Shown: positions 862 through 9,906, counted from the first letter of the stretch. The stretch: DNA of 11,733 nt from an uncultured bacterium (GCA_964010765.1 CAXGMD010000086.1:1-11733); one strand, 5' to 3'. Made by a program: numbers and translations. The notes: generated by a model not told the origin, from the letters alone.

Positions 862-1191
862 ATGTACACAGCCGTTGCAAATGTAAAGGTTACCCCAGCC
901 TATTGGGAAGCACTGATGAAAAACCCGGATTCAGATCGGGCAGCTGCCATTGCCACAGCCATGGCAAGTGTTGGAGGTAAACTCCATTTCTTTGGTTTTA
1001 CCCACGGCAAGTGGGATGCCATCGTAGCTGGTGAGGCACCCTCTGAGGCTGCTTTTATGTCTGTTATTGCTAGTGCCTGGATGGCAGGAATGATACAGGA
1101 TGTTGAAACGATTCCCTGTATCGCTCAAGAAACAGTTACTGAAGTGATGTCTAAAGCCGGTAGTGCCAATTACAAAGGTCCAGGGCAGTAA
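862..1191 (+). CDS. GYD domain-containing protein (about 109 aa). Start moved from 844 to ATG 862.
   Basis: Family pattern T...W..LMKNP..R..A....MASVGGKL.....THGKWD.IV..EAP, with GKWD at the G-x-Y-D position. AAAGGAG at 851-857 precedes ATG 862, whereas ATG 844 has no SD. Confidence 0.8.
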   Translation: MYTAVANVKVTPAYWEALMKNPDSDRAAAIATAMASVGGKLHFFGFTHGKWDAIVAGEAPSEAAFMSVIASAWMAGMIQDVETIPCIAQETVTEVMSKAGSANYKGPGQ

Positions 1192-1215
1192 TCCCTTCAA
1201 TATCTTACCCCATCA

Positions 1216-1254
1216 AAGCCCTTGCCCCAAGCAGGGGTTTCGCTGTTTACTTTC
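1216..1254 (+). terminator. Probable intrinsic terminator after the GYD gene
   Basis: 10-bp stem AAGCCCTTGC / GCAGGGGTTT (two G:U pairs) with a 5-nt loop CCCAA, 24 nt after the stop, followed by an interrupted T-rich tail. Confidence 0.55.
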
Positions 1255-1386
1255 ATCCGAATAATCTAATTGTTGTTCAGCTGAAAAATGTAAGAACTCT
1301 CGTGCAAAAATTCAGACAAAATAATTTCAAAAATCTAATAAATCACTCAAATAAAAAATTCTATATTTAAAAAATTAGATTTCGTC

Positions 1387-3474
1387 ATGAAAAAGCTTAG
1401 TCTGTTATCTATTATACTTATATTTATTTGTACGTTTTCTTTGAAAGCCAATGAAAATAAAGATAAGGTTTATCAAGTCATATCTGAAGAATCAACAAAC
1501 ATCCCAAGAGAATATTATTCTTTTTTAGAAAATGTCAGTTATCAATTAACTCACAAAGATTTATCGGAAGCTAGCTGGACTTCAAAAATGAAAACTCCCC
1601 AATCTTTCTATGATGGTTATTGGGTAAGATTAAAAGTTAAAAATAAAACAGATAAAGTAAACTTAGGACTGGTTCATAGATGGAATTTTGAAAAAAGAAT
1701 TATTTATAAAAATTCCAATAAAATTTATAGTTTTCCGCTAGTACGCTCAATATACGATAACTACACACATCGATCGGAGGATCGTATTTGGTATAATTAC
1801 AAAATAATAATGCCAAAAGATGAACTAGTCGAAATCTACAGCTATTTCAGAAGTCAACCATTAGATAGAAATCAAATCTTTGAAGGCGGTCTGGATTGGA
1901 TGGCGATTGGGTTATGGCAAGATATTGAATTTAATGAAATTATGAGGTTATTAGGATACGTTGTAATGATCTCAATGTTGATTTGTTTTGGCTTATACTT
2001 TTTATTTTACTTTGTAGTTTCTAACGAAAGATCTTATCTTTGGATTTCAATAACACTCTTAGTTGGATTATATCCTTTTATTACATGGATGCTCAGTTCC
2101 ACATTTGGTATTAGATTTAACTATATTTATGGAGCAATTGGTTTGAGTGTCATGTCGATTGTTCTAATAAAATTTTTCCAGAATTTATTATCCTTCAAGC
2201 AAATATTTCCTAGAACTTATTATGTTTATGGAATCGTCACTAAATTTTATTTTTTTTGTGCATTTATTTATTTTTATGATTCTTTACAATACCCAAATAC
2301 TGAGCTGTATGAAGACATAATAAAATATCCACATCATCCTTGGGGTGTGGGTACAATTCCAATGAATTTAGCGCTTATACCAGTAGGTTTAATATTAGTG
2401 TCAGCAGTTTGCATTTCTTATTTATTATGGCGGAGAGGCGACAAGGTTGCGAGATATCTATTTTTTACTTTTTTAGTACCTGTAATTATATTTCCAACAG
2501 CATTCATGGATATGTGGTTCTTGTTTGAAGCAGGATACACATTAAAAGTCATTAAAGATGTAATACAAGTATTAGCAATTTTGCTAATACTCATCATGCT
2601 TGGAATGGCCCTAGCGCAAAAGTTAAACGACATAAAACAGAGTGCAATTGATCTGTTGGAGGATAAAGTTCTATCCAGAACAAAAGCGTTGACAGAGGCA
2701 AATCAATTAATTACGAAAAGTGTGGATTCAGCTAGCATGATTCAGAATGCAATTTTGCCCAAGTTTGATTATCAAGAACATGGATTTGAAGAGTTAAAAT
2801 ATCTCTGGATGCCCAGGGATGTTGTAGGTGGTGATTTTTATTGGGTTGGCAAAAAAGGAGACTGGACTTGCTTGATGGTAGCGGATTGTACTGGTCATGG
2901 CATACCAGGGGCATTCATGACACTGATCTCCACAACTCTACTGAATCGAGTTAAAGAGATTGTAGATCTTAGCCATCCAGATCAGATCCTAGATTCATTG
3001 GATTTCCTATTGGAAGAGACACTCAAGTTCGATGAGAACACAGGAACTGAATTTGGGCTGGATGGAGGTGTTTGTTGCTTTTCTCGAAAACAAAGTCTTC
3101 TTCGATTTGCGGGAGCAAAGATGAATCTTTATTACAAAGCAGCAAATGAAATCTTTGAACTGAAAGGAAATAAAAAAAGTCTTGGTTATGTAACCAAACC
3201 CCATCCACAAAGCTTTGATGTCCATGATGTCAGTCTAAGTAGTAGCCCCACTTTCTATCTTTTTTCTGATGGGTTGACAGATCAAGTAGGTGGACCCAAG
3301 AAAATTATGTATGGTAAAAAGCGCATCATTCGAAAGATTGGGGAGATTTCAGATCTTGATTTGACAATCCAGAACATTTCACAAGACTTTGAACAATATC
3401 AGGGGAAAAATAGGAGAAGAGACGATATTTCATTATTTGGCTTCCGAGTGAGTAACCAAGAAGAAACCGTGTGA
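1387..3474 (+). CDS. siaA: SiaA-like membrane PP2C/SpoIIE phosphatase with 7TM-DISM sensor (signal peptide, DISMED2-like extracellular domain, 7 TM helices, S-helix, PP2C), copy 1
   Basis: Signal peptide MKKLSLLSIILIFICTFSLKA; YWVRLKVKN (7TMR-DISMED2-like); seven hydrophobic segments; LEDKVLSRT S-helix; PP2C motifs PRDVVGGDFYW, VADCTGHGIPGAFM, FSDGLTDQVGG, RRDDI. Lies directly upstream of siaB/siaC. The symbol reflects position and catalytic domain; the sensor differs from P. aeruginosa SiaA. Confidence 0.85.
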   Translation: MKKLSLLSIILIFICTFSLKANENKDKVYQVISEESTNIPREYYSFLENVSYQLTHKDLSEASWTSKMKTPQSFYDGYWVRLKVKNKTDKVNLGLVHRWNFEKRIIYKNSNKIYSFPLVRSIYDNYTHRSEDRIWYNYKIIMPKDELVEIYSYFRSQPLDRNQIFEGGLDWMAIGLWQDIEFNEIMRLLGYVVMISMLICFGLYFLFYFVVSNERSYLWISITLLVGLYPFITWMLSSTFGIRFNYIYGAIGLSVMSIVLIKFFQNLLSFKQIFPRTYYVYGIVTKFYFFCAFIYFYDSLQYPNTELYEDIIKYPHHPWGVGTIPMNLALIPVGLILVSAVCISYLLWRRGDKVARYLFFTFLVPVIIFPTAFMDMWFLFEAGYTLKVIKDVIQVLAILLILIMLGMALAQKLNDIKQSAIDLLEDKVLSRTKALTEANQLITKSVDSASMIQNAILPKFDYQEHGFEELKYLWMPRDVVGGDFYWVGKKGDWTCLMVADCTGHGIPGAFMTLISTTLLNRVKEIVDLSHPDQILDSLDFLLEETLKFDENTGTEFGLDGGVCCFSRKQSLLRFAGAKMNLYYKAANEIFELKGNKKSLGYVTKPHPQSFDVHDVSLSSSPTFYLFSDGLTDQVGGPKKIMYGKKRIIRKIGEISDLDLTIQNISQDFEQYQGKNRRRDDISLFGFRVSNQEETV

Positions 3475-3489
3475 AAAGATAAAGGTAAA

Positions 3490-4041
3490 ATGGATTCGAT
3501 AAAATTTTATGAACTTCAGAAAACTCTGAAAGAAAACGATATAATGTTTTGTTACAGTGGTTATGTGACGCAAAAAATTTTGGTTGCTATTGGTGAAACA
3601 ATAAAAAAGAAATTAGAGGTTGAAGAAACAGATCTTGGAAAAACCAAAAAGGTTTTCTCGATCTTTGTTGAAGGTGTTCAAAACGTAATTCGCTATTCAG
3701 CAGATTCGATTGGTGAATCTGATGAGCTAGATAATGAAGTACGCTACGGGATAGTCACAATTGGAAATAACCCTGAGGGGATTACTGTTCGGTGCGGAAA
3801 TTTGATTTTTAATAAAGATGTAAATCGAATGAAAGAGCGAGTAAGTTTGATTGAAGGTAAGGACAAGGATGAATTAAAAAAATTATATAAAAAACAGATG
3901 ATGGAAGGGCCTGAGGAAGGCAGTAAGGGTGCTAGTTTGGGATTTTTAGAAATGGCCAGGAGGGCAGGTCATCCTCTTGAATTTTCGTTCGAAGAAGTGA
4001 GTGATGACTACACGTTTTTCTGTATTAACGCGATCATTTGA
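3490..4041 (+). CDS. siaB: SiaB-family protein kinase (DUF6272, GHKL-like fold)
   Basis: FCYSG.VTQ..L..IGE, N-box-like FSIFVEGVQNVIRYS, GN.I, K.ELK.LYK..M, and G-box SKGASLGFLEMARR; AAGGT SD; sits between a PP2C gene and a DUF1987 gene. Confidence 0.92.
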   Translation: MDSIKFYELQKTLKENDIMFCYSGYVTQKILVAIGETIKKKLEVEETDLGKTKKVFSIFVEGVQNVIRYSADSIGESDELDNEVRYGIVTIGNNPEGITVRCGNLIFNKDVNRMKERVSLIEGKDKDELKKLYKKQMMEGPEEGSKGASLGFLEMARRAGHPLEFSFEEVSDDYTFFCINAII

Positions 4042-4049
4042 GTAGAAAA

Positions 4050-4436
4050 ATGGATAATTTAGATATTACAGCTACAGAGACTACTCCAGAAATAAAATTT
4101 GATTTTAGTAACCACCACTTTTTATTTGGTGGAGAATCCTACCCTGAGCACTCTGATGAGTTTTATCGACCAATTTTAGAATCAATCCAACAATATTCAC
4201 AAAATGATTCTAATGAACCTGCAACATTCGTTTTCAAACTAACTTATTTTAATAGTTCAAGTGCTCGAGTGCTGATGAAGCTTTTCGAGCTTATTGATGA
4301 GATGGGAGAAAACAGAGAGATCAATGTTGAATGGCACTACCACGAGGAAGATGACACTATGGAAGAATTTGGGGAAGATTTTTCAGATGATATTGAGAAT
4401 GCTAACTTTAAGTTAATGAGTTACTCTGATGACTGA
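4050..4436 (+). CDS. siaC: SiaC-family regulatory phosphoprotein (DUF1987, STAS-like). Start moved from TTG 4038 to ATG 4050.
   Basis: MDNLDITATETTPEIKFD, GESYPE, FYRPI, LTYFNSSS (phosphoacceptor loop), V.WHY.EEDD.M.E.GEDF are all DUF1987 hallmarks. Confidence 0.93.
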   Translation: MDNLDITATETTPEIKFDFSNHHFLFGGESYPEHSDEFYRPILESIQQYSQNDSNEPATFVFKLTYFNSSSARVLMKLFELIDEMGENREINVEWHYHEEDDTMEEFGEDFSDDIENANFKLMSYSDD

Positions 4437-5415
4437 TTTACTTTCTCATGAAGAATCGATTATTGAGCAGGGTAAACAACGAGTTGATTCAGAAGAAGAA
4501 ATTGAGGCGCGTCACTATGCAGAATTACTCAAGGCCTATATCAAGCTCAATAAGGAGCAAAATCGGCTCATTCGTTTGAGTGATAAAAGTCAAAAAAAAC
4601 TCAGTGTTGCCAATGCTAAATTAGCCAATTTTTCTACGAAACTTTCAAAATACTTCTCCCCGGAGGTTTACAACTCTCTGTTTACCGGTGAACTTGATGT
4701 GAAAGTTCAGACTCAAAGGAAACTCCTGACAATTTTCTTTTCTGATCTCGAAGGCTTTACTGAACTGACAGAAAGATTGGAACCCGAAGTACTCACAGAG
4801 TTGCTTACCCACTATCTCACTGAAATGTCTAAAATTGCGTTGCGGTGGGGAGGAACAATCGACAAGTATATTGGCGACGCAATCATGATTTTCTTTGGTG
4901 ACCCAGCCAGTAAGGGGGAAAAAGCTGATGCTGTCAATTGTGTCAGGATGGCAATGGAGATGGTCGACCAATTGGCTGAAATTCGTGCAATCTGGAAAGA
5001 CAAAGGCCTTGCTCTCCCACTCAATGCGAGAATGGGGATCCACACCGGGATCTGTACCGTTGGGAATTTTGGTTCCGAAGATAGGTTAGATTATACTGTG
5101 ATTGGTAACGGGGTAAACCTCGCTTCTAGGCTGGAAAGCAACGCAAAGCCAAACTCGATCCTTATCTCCGAAGACACCTATCTGCATGTTCGAAGTGAGA
5201 TCAACTGTTCAAAGAATAACACGATCAAGGTCAAAGGTGTCTCGTACCCTGTGCAGACTTATAAAGTCGAAGGACTTATGATGGAACAAGCTGATCAGCT
5301 TGGTTTGACTGAACATCAGATTCCAGGACTTTCGTTAATTCTAGATCAAAGCAAAATTGAAAATCGAGTTCTTGTCAGGAAGAAAATCAAAGAAGTACTA
5401 GATCTACTTGAATAG
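4429..5415 (+). CDS. Soluble class III (IIIb) adenylate cyclase with N-terminal SiaD-like coiled-coil
   Basis: Metal ligands D106 (FFSDLEGFT) and D150 (DKYIGDA), ATP-specifying K146 and T223 (RLDYTVIG), transition-state N230/R234 (VNLASRLE), KVKG. LSKYFSPEV transducer-like element before the domain. No TM segment. 8-nt ATGACTGA overlap with siaC. Confidence 0.93.
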   Translation: MTDLLSHEESIIEQGKQRVDSEEEIEARHYAELLKAYIKLNKEQNRLIRLSDKSQKKLSVANAKLANFSTKLSKYFSPEVYNSLFTGELDVKVQTQRKLLTIFFSDLEGFTELTERLEPEVLTELLTHYLTEMSKIALRWGGTIDKYIGDAIMIFFGDPASKGEKADAVNCVRMAMEMVDQLAEIRAIWKDKGLALPLNARMGIHTGICTVGNFGSEDRLDYTVIGNGVNLASRLESNAKPNSILISEDTYLHVRSEINCSKNNTIKVKGVSYPVQTYKVEGLMMEQADQLGLTEHQIPGLSLILDQSKIENRVLVRKKIKEVLDLLE

Positions 5416-5463
5416 TTTTTTCCCCAATCGCTCTCCTACCGCCCCACTCTCCGTAGCCACCCC

Positions 5464-6612
5464 GTGCAAATTTTTAGAAAAATCAGTGTATGTGCTCTGG
5501 TTATTGCCTTGATCTACTCATTGTTGGGATGCTCCCAACTGGGGGAAAATCCGAGTGGAGCCCACTTGGAAGAACTCCGGAAGTCTCCGAACTATTCCAC
5601 TGAGAACAAGAGGTTCAAAAATCGTAGAGAAAATATTTTTGAAGAAATGCGGAAGAGAGATAGCTTCTGGAAGAATCCCATGAAGCGATTTTCCAATAAT
5701 ATGCTTTTTAACCCCAATCAAACCGTTCCTGAGATAGTACTGCCCGAAATACGGCCTCCTGATCTAAAGGAGTTTTTGAAGCCGACTGAGAGCATTAAAT
5801 TTGTTTGGTTTGGTCACTCAACCCTTCTGATAAATATTCAGAACACTATCATCTTAGTAGATCCCGTCTTCTCAACTTCAGCTTCGCCAGTCAATTTCAT
5901 CGTACCTAGATTTCAACCACCTGTTCTTGAACTCAATGAGTTACCAAAAATCGATGTCGTTTTGATCTCCCATGACCATTATGACCATCTTGATATGAAT
6001 ACTGTTCAGTACTTGAGTAACAAAGTTTCAAAATTTATTGTACCACTGGGGGTCACATCTCACTTGAAAAGCTGGGGGGTGAGTGAAGAGAAGATGGTTG
6101 AACTAGACTGGTGGCAGTCTACTTCATTCGATCAGGTTACCTTTACTTCAACACCAGCCCAACATTTCTCTGGAAGACATGCCCTTTTCAACATATCTCA
6201 AACACTTTGGTCTTCTTGGGTTGTTCAGTCAGCAGATGTCAGCTTTTACTTCAGTGGGGATTCAGGGTACGACGTCCACTACAAACAAATTGGAGACAAG
6301 TTCGGGCCCATTGATTTGGTATTTATTGATAGTGGGCAATACAACGCGCGGTGGCGGGAAGTGCATAATCTACCTGAAGAAGCAGTACAGGCATCCATTG
6401 ATCTCAAGGGACGCTATTTAGTCCCTGTTCATTGGGGCATGTTCAATCTTGCAATCCATAATTGGTATGACCCCATCCAAGAGAGTGTTAGGTTTTCTAA
6501 AAAACATAACGTGAAACTAATGACTCCAAAGCTAGGTCAATTAATTTCAATGGAAGAGCAAACATTGACTATTGATTGGTGGTCTAATCTGATTGGAGAG
6601 ATCAAAAAATAA
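5464..6612 (+). CDS. MBL-fold metallo-hydrolase, NAPE-PLD/RomA-like, predicted lipoprotein
   Basis: WFGHSTLLI, DPVFS, ISHDHYDHLD (HxHxDH), PAQHFSGR, FSGDSGY, VHNLPEEA, PVHWGMF; lipobox LLGC (Cys23) after a hydrophobic stretch; GTG start. Confidence 0.88.
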   Translation: MQIFRKISVCALVIALIYSLLGCSQLGENPSGAHLEELRKSPNYSTENKRFKNRRENIFEEMRKRDSFWKNPMKRFSNNMLFNPNQTVPEIVLPEIRPPDLKEFLKPTESIKFVWFGHSTLLINIQNTIILVDPVFSTSASPVNFIVPRFQPPVLELNELPKIDVVLISHDHYDHLDMNTVQYLSNKVSKFIVPLGVTSHLKSWGVSEEKMVELDWWQSTSFDQVTFTSTPAQHFSGRHALFNISQTLWSSWVVQSADVSFYFSGDSGYDVHYKQIGDKFGPIDLVFIDSGQYNARWREVHNLPEEAVQASIDLKGRYLVPVHWGMFNLAIHNWYDPIQESVRFSKKHNVKLMTPKLGQLISMEEQTLTIDWWSNLIGEIKK

Positions 6613-6648
6613 TCCTCCATTTTAGGAAATAAGATAACTAGAAATCAT

Positions 6649-8733
6649 ATGTTTCGTCTGACAACTCTTACTTACCTAATCACCAGTATCACAATATTCT
6701 CCATGTATATTGCGGGTACTTGTGCTCTTGGGAGTCCGTACGTTTACACTGGTGATTCAAAGATTTCAATCGAGCAATTTCAGTATCTTGAAGACATGGA
6801 CGAAACAACTAGTCTATCTGACCTTAAGAAAGCAAATTGGAAAAGTGAAATTGAGAATATACATTCGTATTATAATGGTTTCTGGGTAAAATTAGTAGTT
6901 CTTAATCAAAGTGATGAATCTGATCTTGGTGTTCGTCACTGGACTACATTTGAAAAGAAATTATATGCAGTAAATTCGAAAGGAATTCAAGAATACGATT
7001 ATATTAAATTTGATGATGATTCTTATAATTTTATTGGTATTGATAGAATCCAATTTCGATATCGGATTGTGATGCCAATCAATGAGATAACTACAATCTA
7101 TAGTTTTTACAGGTTTAAACCTCTCCATAGAACACTATCAACCAGGCATGTGACATTTGGTATCGATAGCTGGGAAAATCTACAATCGCAGGCTTTCTTT
7201 CAAATCATGCGGAATATCTTCTTTTATGCAATACTTATTTATCTTTTTTTAAATAGCATATCATCATTTATTGTGACAAAAGATTCGAACTATTTATGGT
7301 TGACAATTTTACTATTTACTCTGGTATTTTCTGCAATCTATTTATCTGGCTATACCATTGGTTTTCGCGGTAATCCCCACATAGGACAATTAATATTTAG
7401 CTGTGTATTGATTTCAATTATTCAATTTTTTAGAAATTTCTTAAATCTTGATTCTAAAATCATATGTAAATTAATAAATAGCTTAATTATTTTACATTTA
7501 TCGATTATTTTTTACTACTTTATTAGGTCATTTGAATTTCCTGATGGTGAATATTTTACTAACCTTAAAAAGTACCCAATTCAACCATTAGGTATTGGAT
7601 ATTTTCGAATGATTCTTCAGTTTGTACCTACTATCATTTTATTACTTTATTTCGCATTTCTTTCATTCAAATCTTGGCAATCAGGGGATAAAGCCTCAGG
7701 TTACATCGTTTTTGCACTTACGATTCCTGTTGTTTCCTTTGGGATTATGGCAATAATTATTAATCTAGCAAATAAAGGCTACTTTGGACTGGAAATTATT
7801 AATCTTGTTGCATTGCCATTAGGTGGCATACTTTTGATACTTTGTCCAATTGCAATTAATTTAGCGTTAGAAGAGAGAATAAAAGCGTTCAAAGATAATG
7901 CAATGAATAATCTACAGTCCTTGAATACAGAACTTGATAACAAAGTTAGAGAAAGGACTCTTGATCTTCAAAAGGCCAACAACTTAATTACAGACAGTAT
8001 ACAATCCGCCAGCGCGATTCAGTCAGCCATTCTCCCTAGCATTGAACCAAGTCACTACGGCTTCAGCGAACTGGTCTACATTTGGGAACCCAGGGACATC
8101 GTAGGTGGGGATTTCTATTGGGCCCAACAGCAGGAAGACTGGACAGCACTGGTTGTTGCAGACTGCACGGGTCACGGAATTCCTGGCGCTTTTATGACAC
8201 TAATCTCCAGTACAATCTTGGATCGTATCGCTTCACTACATGATCTCAGTCAGCCAGATCGAATTTTAGATCAACTTGACGAGTTATTGAGCCACCAAAC
8301 CTTTAAGTTAAGTGCTGGAGATAGCACAAATTTTGGGCTGGATTGTGGAGTTTGTTGTTTTTCCAAGGCAGAAGGAATCTTACGCTTTGCAGGAGCCAAA
8401 TCAAATCTGTATCAGAAAACGGGGGCAGAGGTAAAAGAGATGAAAGGAGACAAGGTCAGTTTAGGCTATGACTCCAAAGAACACCCGATTCCATTTAAGG
8501 TGATTGAAACCAAGCTCGATGAACATTCGAGCTTCTACCTGTTCTCTGACGGCATCACTGATCAAGTCGGTGGCGCAAAGAATCTAATGTATGGCAAGAA
8601 GCGCCTTTTGCGTCAAATCCAGTCTTCTAGCTCGGTGGCTGAGGCTATAGAAAGAATCATGAAAGATCTGAAGAGCTACCAGGCGGATAACAAAAGAAGA
8701 GATGACCTGACTCTGTTCGGTTTCTCTTTTTAA
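6649..8733 (+). CDS. 7TM-DISM receptor / PP2C (SpoIIE) phosphatase, SiaA-like copy 2
   Basis: Same architecture as 1387-3474: N-terminal hydrophobic signal, FWVKLVVLN, 7 TM, LDNKVRERT S-helix, PRDIVGGDFYW, VADCTGHGIPGAFM, FSDGITDQVGG, RRDDL. Confidence 0.88.
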   Translation: MFRLTTLTYLITSITIFSMYIAGTCALGSPYVYTGDSKISIEQFQYLEDMDETTSLSDLKKANWKSEIENIHSYYNGFWVKLVVLNQSDESDLGVRHWTTFEKKLYAVNSKGIQEYDYIKFDDDSYNFIGIDRIQFRYRIVMPINEITTIYSFYRFKPLHRTLSTRHVTFGIDSWENLQSQAFFQIMRNIFFYAILIYLFLNSISSFIVTKDSNYLWLTILLFTLVFSAIYLSGYTIGFRGNPHIGQLIFSCVLISIIQFFRNFLNLDSKIICKLINSLIILHLSIIFYYFIRSFEFPDGEYFTNLKKYPIQPLGIGYFRMILQFVPTIILLLYFAFLSFKSWQSGDKASGYIVFALTIPVVSFGIMAIIINLANKGYFGLEIINLVALPLGGILLILCPIAINLALEERIKAFKDNAMNNLQSLNTELDNKVRERTLDLQKANNLITDSIQSASAIQSAILPSIEPSHYGFSELVYIWEPRDIVGGDFYWAQQQEDWTALVVADCTGHGIPGAFMTLISSTILDRIASLHDLSQPDRILDQLDELLSHQTFKLSAGDSTNFGLDCGVCCFSKAEGILRFAGAKSNLYQKTGAEVKEMKGDKVSLGYDSKEHPIPFKVIETKLDEHSSFYLFSDGITDQVGGAKNLMYGKKRLLRQIQSSSSVAEAIERIMKDLKSYQADNKRRDDLTLFGFSF

Positions 8734-8835
8734 TTTTTTCCCACGTCGATACTTCTGAACAGGTAATACCTACTTTCAGTCATTTTTATTCAGTTTTTCA
8801 CCTCATTAACCTCACTTAGCTTTTTGAGCCCTCAC

Positions 8836-9906
8836 ATGCAAAGACTCACAAAACTCAGCTTTTTTACATTATGGATGACTGGGGTAGTTGCATGTTCCAG
8901 TGGCGGTTCTTCAAGCAGAATTGACAACAGCACATCAACTAAGGATATTGCAGATGTCGGTACACTTGTAGATCAAGATGAAGATCAAAATGTGAACACT
9001 GATTCCTCAGACAATAGTATCACACCACCGGACATCACCAACCATATCTTCACGAAAGCAGACCCTTCCTGCAGTGCCTACGTTGGTGAGTTCACTTCCA
9101 CGATCAAAGATCTTGGCAATAACCGTACTTTGTCGGGATCACTTTCCATCACAGCGAATGGCAACACCTGCACGATCAGCAGTAACTCGATTCCTAACCA
9201 CGATGTCAATGATACGGGTGCATTTGCAACAACGATTGGCGAGGTCGACGAAACTTTTAGTATCCCTATCTCACCATCTACAGCAAACAGTACCACCCAA
9301 CTTACTCTGCAATACGACAATGCGATTTTTTTAAATGGAGCAAAGCTCGATTTACTCGCTGCAGCCTGTTACGGGGTTGGGCCTGATCCACTTGGAAAAG
9401 AAAAGATTGGTTGTTCGCAGACGAGTATTCCTTGGCGCTATGATCCCATGTACTTGCTGAATCAATTTGGAACAGACTACCACAACGCTCATACGCAACC
9501 GGATGGAGCCTATCATTATCATGGAGATCCTTTAGCCATGTACGACACTTCAGGGCAAACGGCTTCGGGAGTAATTGGTTTTGCTGCTGATGGTTTTCCA
9601 ATTTATGGTCCTTTCATCGATGACAATGGAAGCATACGCAGAGTCACTTCAAGCTATGTCCTCATAGACGATGGAGGTACGCGGCAAAGTCAGGCTGGAG
9701 AGGGAGCATTCCCAGGTGGAAATTATGATGGTACTTATATCGATGATTATGAATACCAGGCTGGCAGTGGAGATCTAGACGAGTGCAATGGAATGGTGAT
9801 CAATGGTCATTACGGATATTTTGTGACAAATGCTTATCCCTGGATTATGAAATGCTTCAGAGGGCGTCCTGACAGTTCCTTCCGCAAGACTTCTGGAAAG
9901 CCTTAA
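8836..9906 (+). CDS. YHYH domain lipoprotein. Start likely ATG 8836 rather than TTG 8824.
   Basis: SNSIPNH, DYHNAHTQPDGAYHYHG, IGFAADGFPIYG, GDLDECNG, YGYFVT..YP....CFRG; lipobox VVAC (Cys20) followed by an S/D/N/T-rich linker. Confidence 0.88.
   Translation: MQRLTKLSFFTLWMTGVVACSSGGSSSRIDNSTSTKDIADVGTLVDQDEDQNVNTDSSDNSITPPDITNHIFTKADPSCSAYVGEFTSTIKDLGNNRTLSGSLSITANGNTCTISSNSIPNHDVNDTGAFATTIGEVDETFSIPISPSTANSTTQLTLQYDNAIFLNGAKLDLLAAACYGVGPDPLGKEKIGCSQTSIPWRYDPMYLLNQFGTDYHNAHTQPDGAYHYHGDPLAMYDTSGQTASGVIGFAADGFPIYGPFIDDNGSIRRVTSSYVLIDDGGTRQSQAGEGAFPGGNYDGTYIDDYEYQAGSGDLDECNGMVINGHYGYFVTNAYPWIMKCFRGRPDSSFRKTSGKP

Follow-up and report, generated by a model that had tools for sequence, protein, structure and literature searches.

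The window analysed here is the whole of contig C86 (11,733 bases), part of an assembly of 3.86 Mb (266 contigs, 92% completeness) from a marine SAR324 bacterium; SAR324 is an abundant uncultured ocean lineage. Between positions 1387 and 5415 the window carries four head-to-tail genes on the + strand, whose products are a PP2C phosphatase, a kinase of the SiaB family, a SiaC phosphoprotein and a soluble nucleotide cyclase of class III. The reference system for this set of genes is SiaABCD of Pseudomonas aeruginosa (PA0172-PA0169; structures 6KKO, 6K4F and 7E6G; PMC7647112, PMC8457831), in which the effector is a GGDEF protein, SiaD. We describe the SAR324 locus as a candidate SiaABC-type partner switch that would have the synthesis of cyclic AMP (cAMP) as its output.

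Organization of the locus

The first gene (1387-3474, + strand) encodes a siaA-like receptor phosphatase of 695 amino acids (aa), made up of a signal-like N-terminus, an extracytoplasmic part, a multi-pass membrane region (residues ~190-410), a coiled-coil linker and a SpoIIE/PP2C domain (residues 494-688, Pfam E 4.1e-16). It is followed by siaB (3490-4041, + strand), encoding a GHKL-type Ser/Thr protein kinase of 183 aa (Pfam DUF6272, E 2.6e-41), and by siaC (4050-4436, + strand), encoding a DUF1987/SiaC phosphoprotein of 128 aa when counted from its ATG (PF09345, E 4.5e-40; 136.5 bits, cut-off 24.5). A TTG at 4038 is a possible alternative start for siaC; the homologues begin at the ATG. The fourth gene (4429-5415, + strand) encodes a class III nucleotide cyclase of 328 aa that consists of a docking stalk, a catalytic domain (Guanylate_cyc, residues 99-281, E 1.8e-29) and a conserved C-terminal tail.

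Read from the sequence, the intergenic spacing is 15 nucleotides (nt), then 8 nt, and then an 8-nt overlap of siaC with the cyclase gene (ATGACTGA), which is tight enough for translational coupling. An earlier annotation made from the bare DNA, referred to here as the sequence-only reading, had named the same gene families and distances and had stated that no GGDEF protein is encoded in the window. Open reading frame (ORF) calls, Pfam and NCBIfam reproduced the families and the spacing exactly, and no GGDEF domain was found in the 11 window ORFs scanned with Pfam.

Metatranscriptome contigs from four runs in four studies bridge the siaA/siaB, siaB/siaC and siaC/cyclase junctions, and one of them, 1,601 nt long, spans 3745-5345. 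This is a weak hint of co-expression of the switch genes, as DNA can be present in RNA libraries and a contig that runs across genes is no proof of one transcript. The runs were picked by words from 3300-5600, and their contigs do not reach 1100-1891 or most of 6900-9000 and are uninformative on transcript ends. A scan of 1100-9000 for promoters and terminators gave counts close to those of shuffled sequence (27 promoter-like sites vs 25.1 in shuffles; 4 terminator-like sites vs 4.7) and is uninformative on operon structure.

Conserved residues of the switch proteins

The window SiaB scores 189.9 bits on the NCBIfam model SiaB_fam_kinase (NF038262, cut-off 85), aligns end to end with the P. 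aeruginosa SiaB chain 6kko_A (E 4.6e-19) and retains E61 and N65. Similarly, the window SiaC matches the P. aeruginosa SiaC chains 6kko_C/7e6g (E 7.8e-16). In the HMMER alignment, Ser69 of SiaC (codon at 4254-4256, + strand), the predicted phospho-acceptor, falls on the position of Thr68, with FNSSS set against LNTSS, and the residues Y66-F67-N68-S69 are invariant across 35 SAR324-phylum homologues. According to the retrieved portions of two reports on the P. aeruginosa system, T68 of SiaC is the residue that is phosphorylated by SiaB and dephosphorylated by SiaA (PMC7647112, PMC8457831).

The siaA-like protein keeps the PP2C motifs (GGDF at 481, ADCTGHG at 499, SDGL at 627 and RRDD at 677), and its metal-binding Asp motifs are present. 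On the 658-position NCBIfam SiaA model it covers only the C-terminal positions 370-657, with 183 bits. Because the model is matched over this range only, we regard the phosphatase half as SiaA-like and the sensor half as something else. The N-terminal half, which the SiaA model leaves unmatched, has a signal-like segment and at least six hydrophobic segments at 192-410, a profile compatible with a multi-pass receptor; the prediction of a different sensor on the input side was thus correct. No Pfam match to 7TMR-DISM_7TM or DISMED2 was found in this protein at E<=0.01, and its BLASTP alignment with a clear 7TMR-DISM PP2C (L051) runs only from residue 351 onward.

A putative SiaD-like docking module on the cyclase stalk

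The regions within ±6 kb of all 42 SiaC matches in 88 SAR324-phylum genomes were taken, and alignment A1 was built from the N-termini of the siaC-adjacent effectors. These proteins, which in SAR324 are cyclases, HD-GYP proteins, histidine kinases and one PP2C encoded beside siaB/siaC, have in common an almost gapless N-terminal module of ~70 residues that no Pfam family covers. In the window cyclase this proposed SiaC receiver is a helical module of ~72 residues (4429-4644, + strand), and the core docking motif within it reads R46-L-I-R-L-S51-D52-K-S-Q55 (4564-4593, + strand). S51 and D52 are invariant in the 20 cyclases of alignment A3, and likewise in 20/20 module-bearing cyclases aligned from two phyla.

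When the A1 profile was run against all PDB chains, it matched SiaD in 7E6G (7e6g_A, E 0.0029, 20.7 bits), aligning to SiaD residues 16-55 and 60-100, both of which end in R-I-S-D-x-x-Q. In the part of PMC8457831 that was retrieved, these two elements are described as the SiaC-binding motifs of SiaD, and S82 and Q86 of SiaD as hydrogen-bonding SiaC Thr68. The profile alignment places S82 and Q86 on S51 and Q55 of the window cyclase.

Searched against 1.84 billion proteins, the A1 profile returned 955 cluster representatives at E<=1e-3, with the module almost always at residues ~5-80. The best 150 representatives included 118 of at least 140 aa, which were scanned with Pfam; the other 32, being shorter, were set aside as fragments. 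The outputs of the 118 comprised 58 histidine kinases, 23 GGDEF proteins, 13 class III cyclases, 5 PP2C proteins and 3 HD-GYP proteins, the remainder being one protein with PAS only, one SiaC fusion and 14 without family. The seed alignment A1 contained no GGDEF proteins. The SiaC fusion (P0186) is a 250-aa protein in which a SiaC domain (6-102) is joined to a docking module (142-210), so that a switch protein and its own receiver stand on one chain.

Predicted complex of SiaC with the stalk

Two copies of cyclase residues 1-100 and two copies of SiaC were modelled together from custom alignments. The model reached an ipSAE of 0.84, and the best of three controls reached 0.00; the ipSAE mark applied is attained by 116/157 solved complexes and by 2/215 mismatched pairs, a calibration that holds roughly for custom alignments. 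Three model runs had at least 96% of their contacts in common, with a partner predicted local distance difference test score (pLDDT) of at least 91. The predicted interface brings cyclase residues 42-57 (plus 3-7) together with SiaC residues 66-81 and 103-114, faces that SiaC also presents in SiaC-SiaD. The modelled Ser69 contacts L47, I48, L50, S51, D52, S54 and Q55 across both helices, and its geometry is that reported for Thr68 between the SiaD stalks. From this model we infer that SiaC binds the cyclase.

Docking of this kind need not activate the enzyme. SiaC could sit on the stalk and inhibit the cyclase, for example by holding the coiled coil locked in an inactive register, in which case phosphorylation of SiaC would turn cAMP on. 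In class III cyclases, regulation runs through the helix ahead of the catalytic domain and its register, the sequence leaves the sign of regulation unfixed and, with one motif in the cyclase vs two in SiaD, the mechanism need not be identical. We nevertheless consider inhibition unlikely, as SiaC in the model spans the two helices of a parallel dimer, which would favour the dimer that catalysis requires, and the only characterised homologous interaction, as presented in the retrieved part of PMC8457831, activates by stabilising a parallel dimer.

The catalytic domain and its product

The nearest solved relative of the catalytic domain (4723-5271, + strand) is CyaB, an adenylate cyclase of P. 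aeruginosa (3r5g, E 1.4e-66, residues 92-280). The next nearest solved domains are the adenylate cyclases CyaC (1wc1), and guanylate cyclases score far lower. The metal-binding Asp106 and Asp150, Lys146, Thr223 and the transition-state residue Arg234 are invariant among the 20 orthologues of alignment A3, and Asn230, the other transition-state residue, is nearly so; Lys146 and Thr223 align with the same residues in CyaB 3r5g and CyaC 1wc1. We take this Lys/Thr pair to specify ATP, on the understanding that Lys plus Asp/Thr marks the adenylate type and Glu/Cys the guanylate type. No hydrophobic segment was found in the 328-aa protein. These features suggest that the window cyclase is a soluble, active adenylate cyclase.

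A further alternative is that the switch controls the enzyme and that the product is something other than cAMP, be it cyclic GMP or another cyclic nucleotide, or that the protein is a non-catalytic scaffold. The Pfam family spans both adenylate and guanylate cyclases, and in distant module-bearing cyclases (26-31% identical; L105, L106, L108, L116, L119, L147-L150 and L154) the Lys146 column holds A, N or G, which reflects either misalignment or a different nucleotide specificity, so that specificity may vary in the wider group. For the window enzyme this is the least likely of the alternatives that we weigh. Both it and its 42-49% identical orthologues keep Lys146/Thr223 as well as the metal and transition-state residues, and its best solved relatives, first CyaB and then CyaC, are adenylate cyclases.

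The protein at L106:764-2494 (minus strand) is a module-bearing class III cyclase encoded downstream of siaC that ends in a C-terminal PilZ domain; a cyclase of the cAMP type may in this case also sense cyclic di-GMP (c-di-GMP).

Just before the catalytic domain of the window cyclase, the sequence L-S-K-Y-F-S-P-E-V-Y has what we take to be a resemblance to the helical transducer element found ahead of many class III cyclases. Length differences of 7 or 14 residues separate the cyclases in the stretch that joins docking motif and catalytic domain, as one would predict for a signal passed along a single uninterrupted coiled coil. After the catalytic domain comes a tail of ~45 residues (5283-5415, residues ~285-328) for which no family match was found and in which G300 is invariant and D306 nearly so among 20 sequences. 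Near-identical copies of the window cyclase dominate the best 120 of 205 A1 homologues and are numerous in public metagenomes.

Recurrence of siaC-linked effectors

In the 88 genomes of the SAR324 phylum, siaC was found in 29, the docking module in 28 and both in 27. A similar pattern was seen in a sample of 401 genomes from the phylum to which G088 belongs (taken as Pseudomonadota), with siaC in 68 genomes, the module in 61 and both in 59. A similarity search with the single SiaC protein in genome contigs gave two genuine relatives plus a chance match of 10 residues and was too narrow to serve as a survey.

Of the 41 SAR324 module matches, 30 share a contig with siaC at a distance of at most 3.1 kb. 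These neighbouring effectors comprise 20 cyclases, 6 histidine kinases, 3 HD-GYP proteins and 1 PP2C, and no GGDEF effector was found beside siaC among these 30. The siaC-linked cyclases, which were called by phmmer with the window cyclase (three were confirmed by Pfam), come from 16 genomes in 5 genera and 2 families. In the Pseudomonadota sample, 63/93 module matches lie within 5 kb of siaC, and 53 of these 63 stand directly downstream of it, on the same strand and within 200 nt. Their outputs are 25 GAF-HD-GYP proteins, 17 GGDEF proteins, 13 class III cyclases (one with PilZ), 7 histidine kinases and one protein cut after GAF. At seven of the 13 cyclase loci the order siaB-siaC-cyclase is as in the window, with cyclases that are 42-46% identical and have identical catalytic residues, and two further loci show the full order PP2C-siaB-siaC-cyclase.

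These data show that module genes adjoin siaC far more often than chance allows, and that the adjacency of siaC and a cyclase, on which the proposal had been staked, recurs in 16 SAR324-phylum genomes and at 13 loci of the second-phylum sample. The sense of a one-off rewiring that the sequence-only reading conveyed is too narrow, as the cyclase is one of several common outputs of the switch.

The module genes away from siaC are of several kinds. The 30 siaC-distant matches in Pseudomonadota are 12 HD-GYP proteins, 9 PP2C proteins, 5 cyclases, 3 histidine kinases and 1 protein without family. Six of the 11 in SAR324 are frames of 735-777 aa, in genomes that have a chemotaxis-type siaB-siaC locus. 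Such loci (L044, L046, L048, L057 and L058; family f7 and others of SAR324) encode an MCP, a DUF3334/CheX-like protein, SiaB, SiaC and an FKBP protein, with no module effector adjoining; in L058, SiaB and SiaC are fused into one 318-aa protein.

Proteins of ~325-370 aa that combine the docking module with a PP2C domain form another group (L054:5018-5995, minus strand; P0124, P0224, P0230 and P0250), with further loci of this type at L136, L142, L145, L146, L151-L153, L155 and L157. In the 401-genome sample, 9/9 module-PP2C genes lie away from siaC. With such proteins SiaC may control a second phosphatase, which would give a cascade of partner switches.

The Sia modules and second messengers of the host genome

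A second Sia-type module is present in the host assembly on the minus strand of contig C144 (L003, G000:C144:1-6105). Its order is PP2C (cut), siaC, siaB, a 152-aa protein without family, a PNPOx-like protein, a GAF-PP2C, a 349-aa module cyclase and a PP2C. Compared with those of the window, its SiaC is 33% identical and its cyclase 47-49% identical. C86 and C144 are probably neighbours, because two congeners have both siaC genes on one contig, 16-18 kb apart (G055:C248, 41179/57231; G050:C321, 19803/37805).

Within the host assembly the docking module was found only on the two cyclases that accompany the two siaC genes. Domain searches of the assembly gave 12 class III cyclase matches, 5 cNMP-binding (cyclic nucleotide monophosphate-binding) matches and 2 GGDEF matches. 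The latter two stand at contig ends (L165, G000:C120:2-1276, minus strand; G000:C141:6108-6356), complement each other as halves and are probably one gene. The half on C120 is fused to a cNMP_binding domain and a receiver-like domain, and neither half carries a docking module. The sequence-only reading had allowed that SiaC might prefer a SiaD-type diguanylate cyclase encoded elsewhere; no GGDEF protein with a docking module was found in this 92%-complete assembly. On these counts the lineage seems to depend far more on cyclic mononucleotides than on c-di-GMP and, speculatively, cAMP from the Sia-controlled cyclases could feed into c-di-GMP synthesis.

These results also bear on whether the genes merely share a location, with SiaB and SiaC acting on a target elsewhere, such as a sigma factor, a kinase or another enzyme, and the cyclase being regulated independently. 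The targets of other partner switches are encoded elsewhere, a minority of module genes (11/41 and 30/93) are not beside siaC, and some SAR324 siaB-siaC pairs stand in the chemotaxis-type loci without an adjacent effector. What speaks for a local target is the SiaD-type docking motif on the stalk, the 8-nt overlap of siaC with the cyclase gene, an adjacency conserved in two phyla, the restriction of the module in this assembly to the two siaC-adjoining cyclases, and a complex model that passes its controls. We therefore hold mere co-location to be very unlikely, less probable than inhibition of the cyclase by SiaC and slightly more probable than a product other than cAMP.

Proposed mechanism and points against it

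We put the probability that the four genes form one SiaABC-type partner switch with an adenylate cyclase as output enzyme at about 70%. The claim that the same phospho-switch now controls a cyclase finds support, at the level of sequence, in Ser69 of SiaC, E61/N65 of SiaB, the Asp motifs of the PP2C domain, the docking motif homologous to those of SiaD, the complex model and the synteny.

In the mechanism that we propose, an extracytoplasmic or membrane signal would act on the putative seven-transmembrane (7TM) receptor phosphatase and perhaps also on its paralogue at 6649-8733. The SiaB kinase would phosphorylate Ser69 of SiaC, and the receptor phosphatase would remove that phosphate. Unphosphorylated SiaC would dock on R46-Q55 of the N-terminal helix of the cyclase, where Ser69 would wedge between the two parallel helices of the cyclase dimer and clamp the coiled coil leading into the catalytic domains. 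As the active sites of class III cyclases form only across a dimer, the clamp would most likely turn cAMP synthesis on. Phospho-Ser69 would prevent docking and so turn synthesis off.

Several observations weigh against this interpretation. The window SiaC scores 85 bits on the NCBIfam SiaC equivalog model, where the cut-off is 150, and is for this reason placed as a member of the family and not as the equivalog of P. aeruginosa SiaC; the 183 bits of the siaA-like protein are likewise below the SiaA equivalog cut-off of 700. The match of the A1 profile to SiaD sits among coiled-coil noise, with designed coiled coils and a kinesin coil scoring equally well or better. We take this weak match as real because of three independent results, namely the spread of the profile to GGDEF proteins, the adjacency to siaC and the co-occurrence across genomes. 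The window cyclase has one docking motif and SiaD has two, so the stoichiometry must differ from that of SiaC-SiaD. The complex model shows likeness, not binding, and its pass may be a memory of the solved structure 7E6G.

The direction and the reach of the control are also affected. Activation by SiaC and inhibition by it cannot be told apart at the sequence level. In SiaD, activation is the breaking of an inactive pentamer, as the retrieved part of PMC8457831 has it, and nothing suggests such an inactive-pentamer state for the window cyclase. Docking in cis is not the sole arrangement, since the module genes away from siaC amount to 11/41 in SAR324 and 30/93 in the second phylum. The synteny counts are overstated because related genomes are non-independent, and they show recurrence and are not a statistic. 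With three of four components and the docking motif shared, and the defining GGDEF effector replaced, the window system is a member of the Sia family and not SiaABCD in the strict sense.

Genes downstream of the switch

Two more genes follow the cyclase on the same strand, after 48 nt and then 36 nt. The first (5464-6612, + strand) encodes a metallo-beta-lactamase (MBL)-fold hydrolase with a lipoprotein-like N-terminus (Pfam Lactamase_B_2, E 3e-44; one N-terminal hydrophobic segment). The second (6649-8733, + strand) encodes another receptor-PP2C (SpoIIE, E 1.7e-22), which is a paralogue of the siaA-like protein with the same architecture (phmmer 1e-50). It scores 187.9 bits on the NCBIfam SiaA model, again over positions 370-657, and has a weak 7TMR-DISM_7TM match (E 1e-5; 26 bits where the cut-off is 29). 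This protein may be a second receptor input to the same SiaC. The six-gene order through the second PP2C is kept in two congeners (L049 and L052), with the second PP2C split into two ORFs in L052, and L050 keeps the same gene order up to the end of its 4-kb contig.

The G+C content of siaA, siaB and siaC is 0.34-0.36 and that of the cyclase gene 0.42; the genome has 0.46 and contig C144 has 0.48. The low values of siaA-siaC possibly reflect a foreign origin, or else a composition bias of membrane and Lys/Asn-rich proteins. Recent horizontal transfer of the module from Pseudomonadota was considered and left no sign, the nearest cyclases there being only 42-46% identical.

Relation to known systems

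The window system is like SiaABCD in having a PP2C whose C-terminal half is of the SiaA type, a kinase of the SiaB family and a SiaC with its acceptor at the start of helix alpha2. It is also like SiaABCD in that the effector is encoded directly downstream and carries an N-terminal stalk with R-[ILM]-S-D-[KR]-x-Q, for which docking on the same SiaC faces is predicted. It differs in that the effector is a class III cyclase instead of a GGDEF protein, the acceptor is Ser instead of Thr, and the docking motif occurs once and not twice as in SiaD. Unlike SiaA, the window phosphatase has as its sensor half a putative 7TM receptor unrelated to the SiaA N-terminal half, and the window operon is followed by the second receptor-PP2C paralogue and the MBL-fold lipoprotein gene.

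Among solved catalytic domains, that of CyaB (3R5G) is the nearest, and it shares the Lys/Thr substrate pair and the metal ligands. CyaB is bound to the membrane through an N-terminal MASE2 domain, whereas the window enzyme is soluble and begins with a SiaC-docking module. To our knowledge, CyaB is not under partner-switch control.

Other partner switches are known to control second-messenger enzymes. HsbA-HsbD of P. aeruginosa and BgrV-BgrR of Sinorhizobium meliloti are cited in the retrieved part of PMC8457831 as controlling diguanylate cyclases through STAS proteins. In these systems, as in the window, a phosphorylatable small alpha/beta protein regulates a second-messenger cyclase and not a sigma factor; unlike the window system, they use canonical STAS proteins and GGDEF outputs. 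The closest published statement that we found, in the discussion of PMC8457831 as retrieved, is that DUF1987 proteins may generally modulate "adjacent proteins".

No description of a class III cyclase controlled by SiaC or by a partner switch was found in the literature as retrieved, a search for which subscription journals and supplements were outside the scope. Matches for partner switching together with adenylate cyclase were mentions of BACTH, the two-hybrid assay based on bacterial adenylate cyclase, or were unrelated (PMC9127174 was checked in its retrieved text), and in the retrieved text of a 2025 Journal of Biological Chemistry (JBC) paper (PMC12834913) adenylate cyclase appears only in a general comparison. 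The locus is a widespread but uncharacterised variant of SiaABCD, and what is new here is the cyclase output and the counts.

Significance for the family and for SAR324

GGDEF proteins are a minority among the siaC-linked effectors (17/63 in Pseudomonadota, 0/30 in SAR324), and cyclase outputs, at 13/63 and 20/30, are about as common. This commonness raises the general importance of the cyclase output and lowers its strangeness. We judge it rather probable that the ~70-residue module is a general, uncatalogued "SiaC receiver" that plugs one Ser/Thr phospho-switch into at least five enzyme classes, and that in this SAR324 genome the switch may reach c-di-GMP only indirectly, via cAMP. The five receiver-bearing classes are class III cyclases, GGDEF proteins, HD-GYP proteins, histidine kinases (including hybrid and CheA-like ones) and PP2C phosphatases.

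The system is probably relevant to how SAR324 senses its surroundings, because the lineage is abundant and near-identical cyclases are numerous in metagenomes. If the interpretation is true, the system would be the first demonstrated case of control over cAMP synthesis by a partner-switching Ser/Thr phospho-switch, and it would add a new type of class III adenylate cyclase regulation, in which an accessory protein clamps the helix ahead of the catalytic domain. The targets of SiaC would become predictable from sequence through a short N-terminal motif, and SiaABCD would be one instance of a modular input device and not a curiosity of Pseudomonas biofilms.

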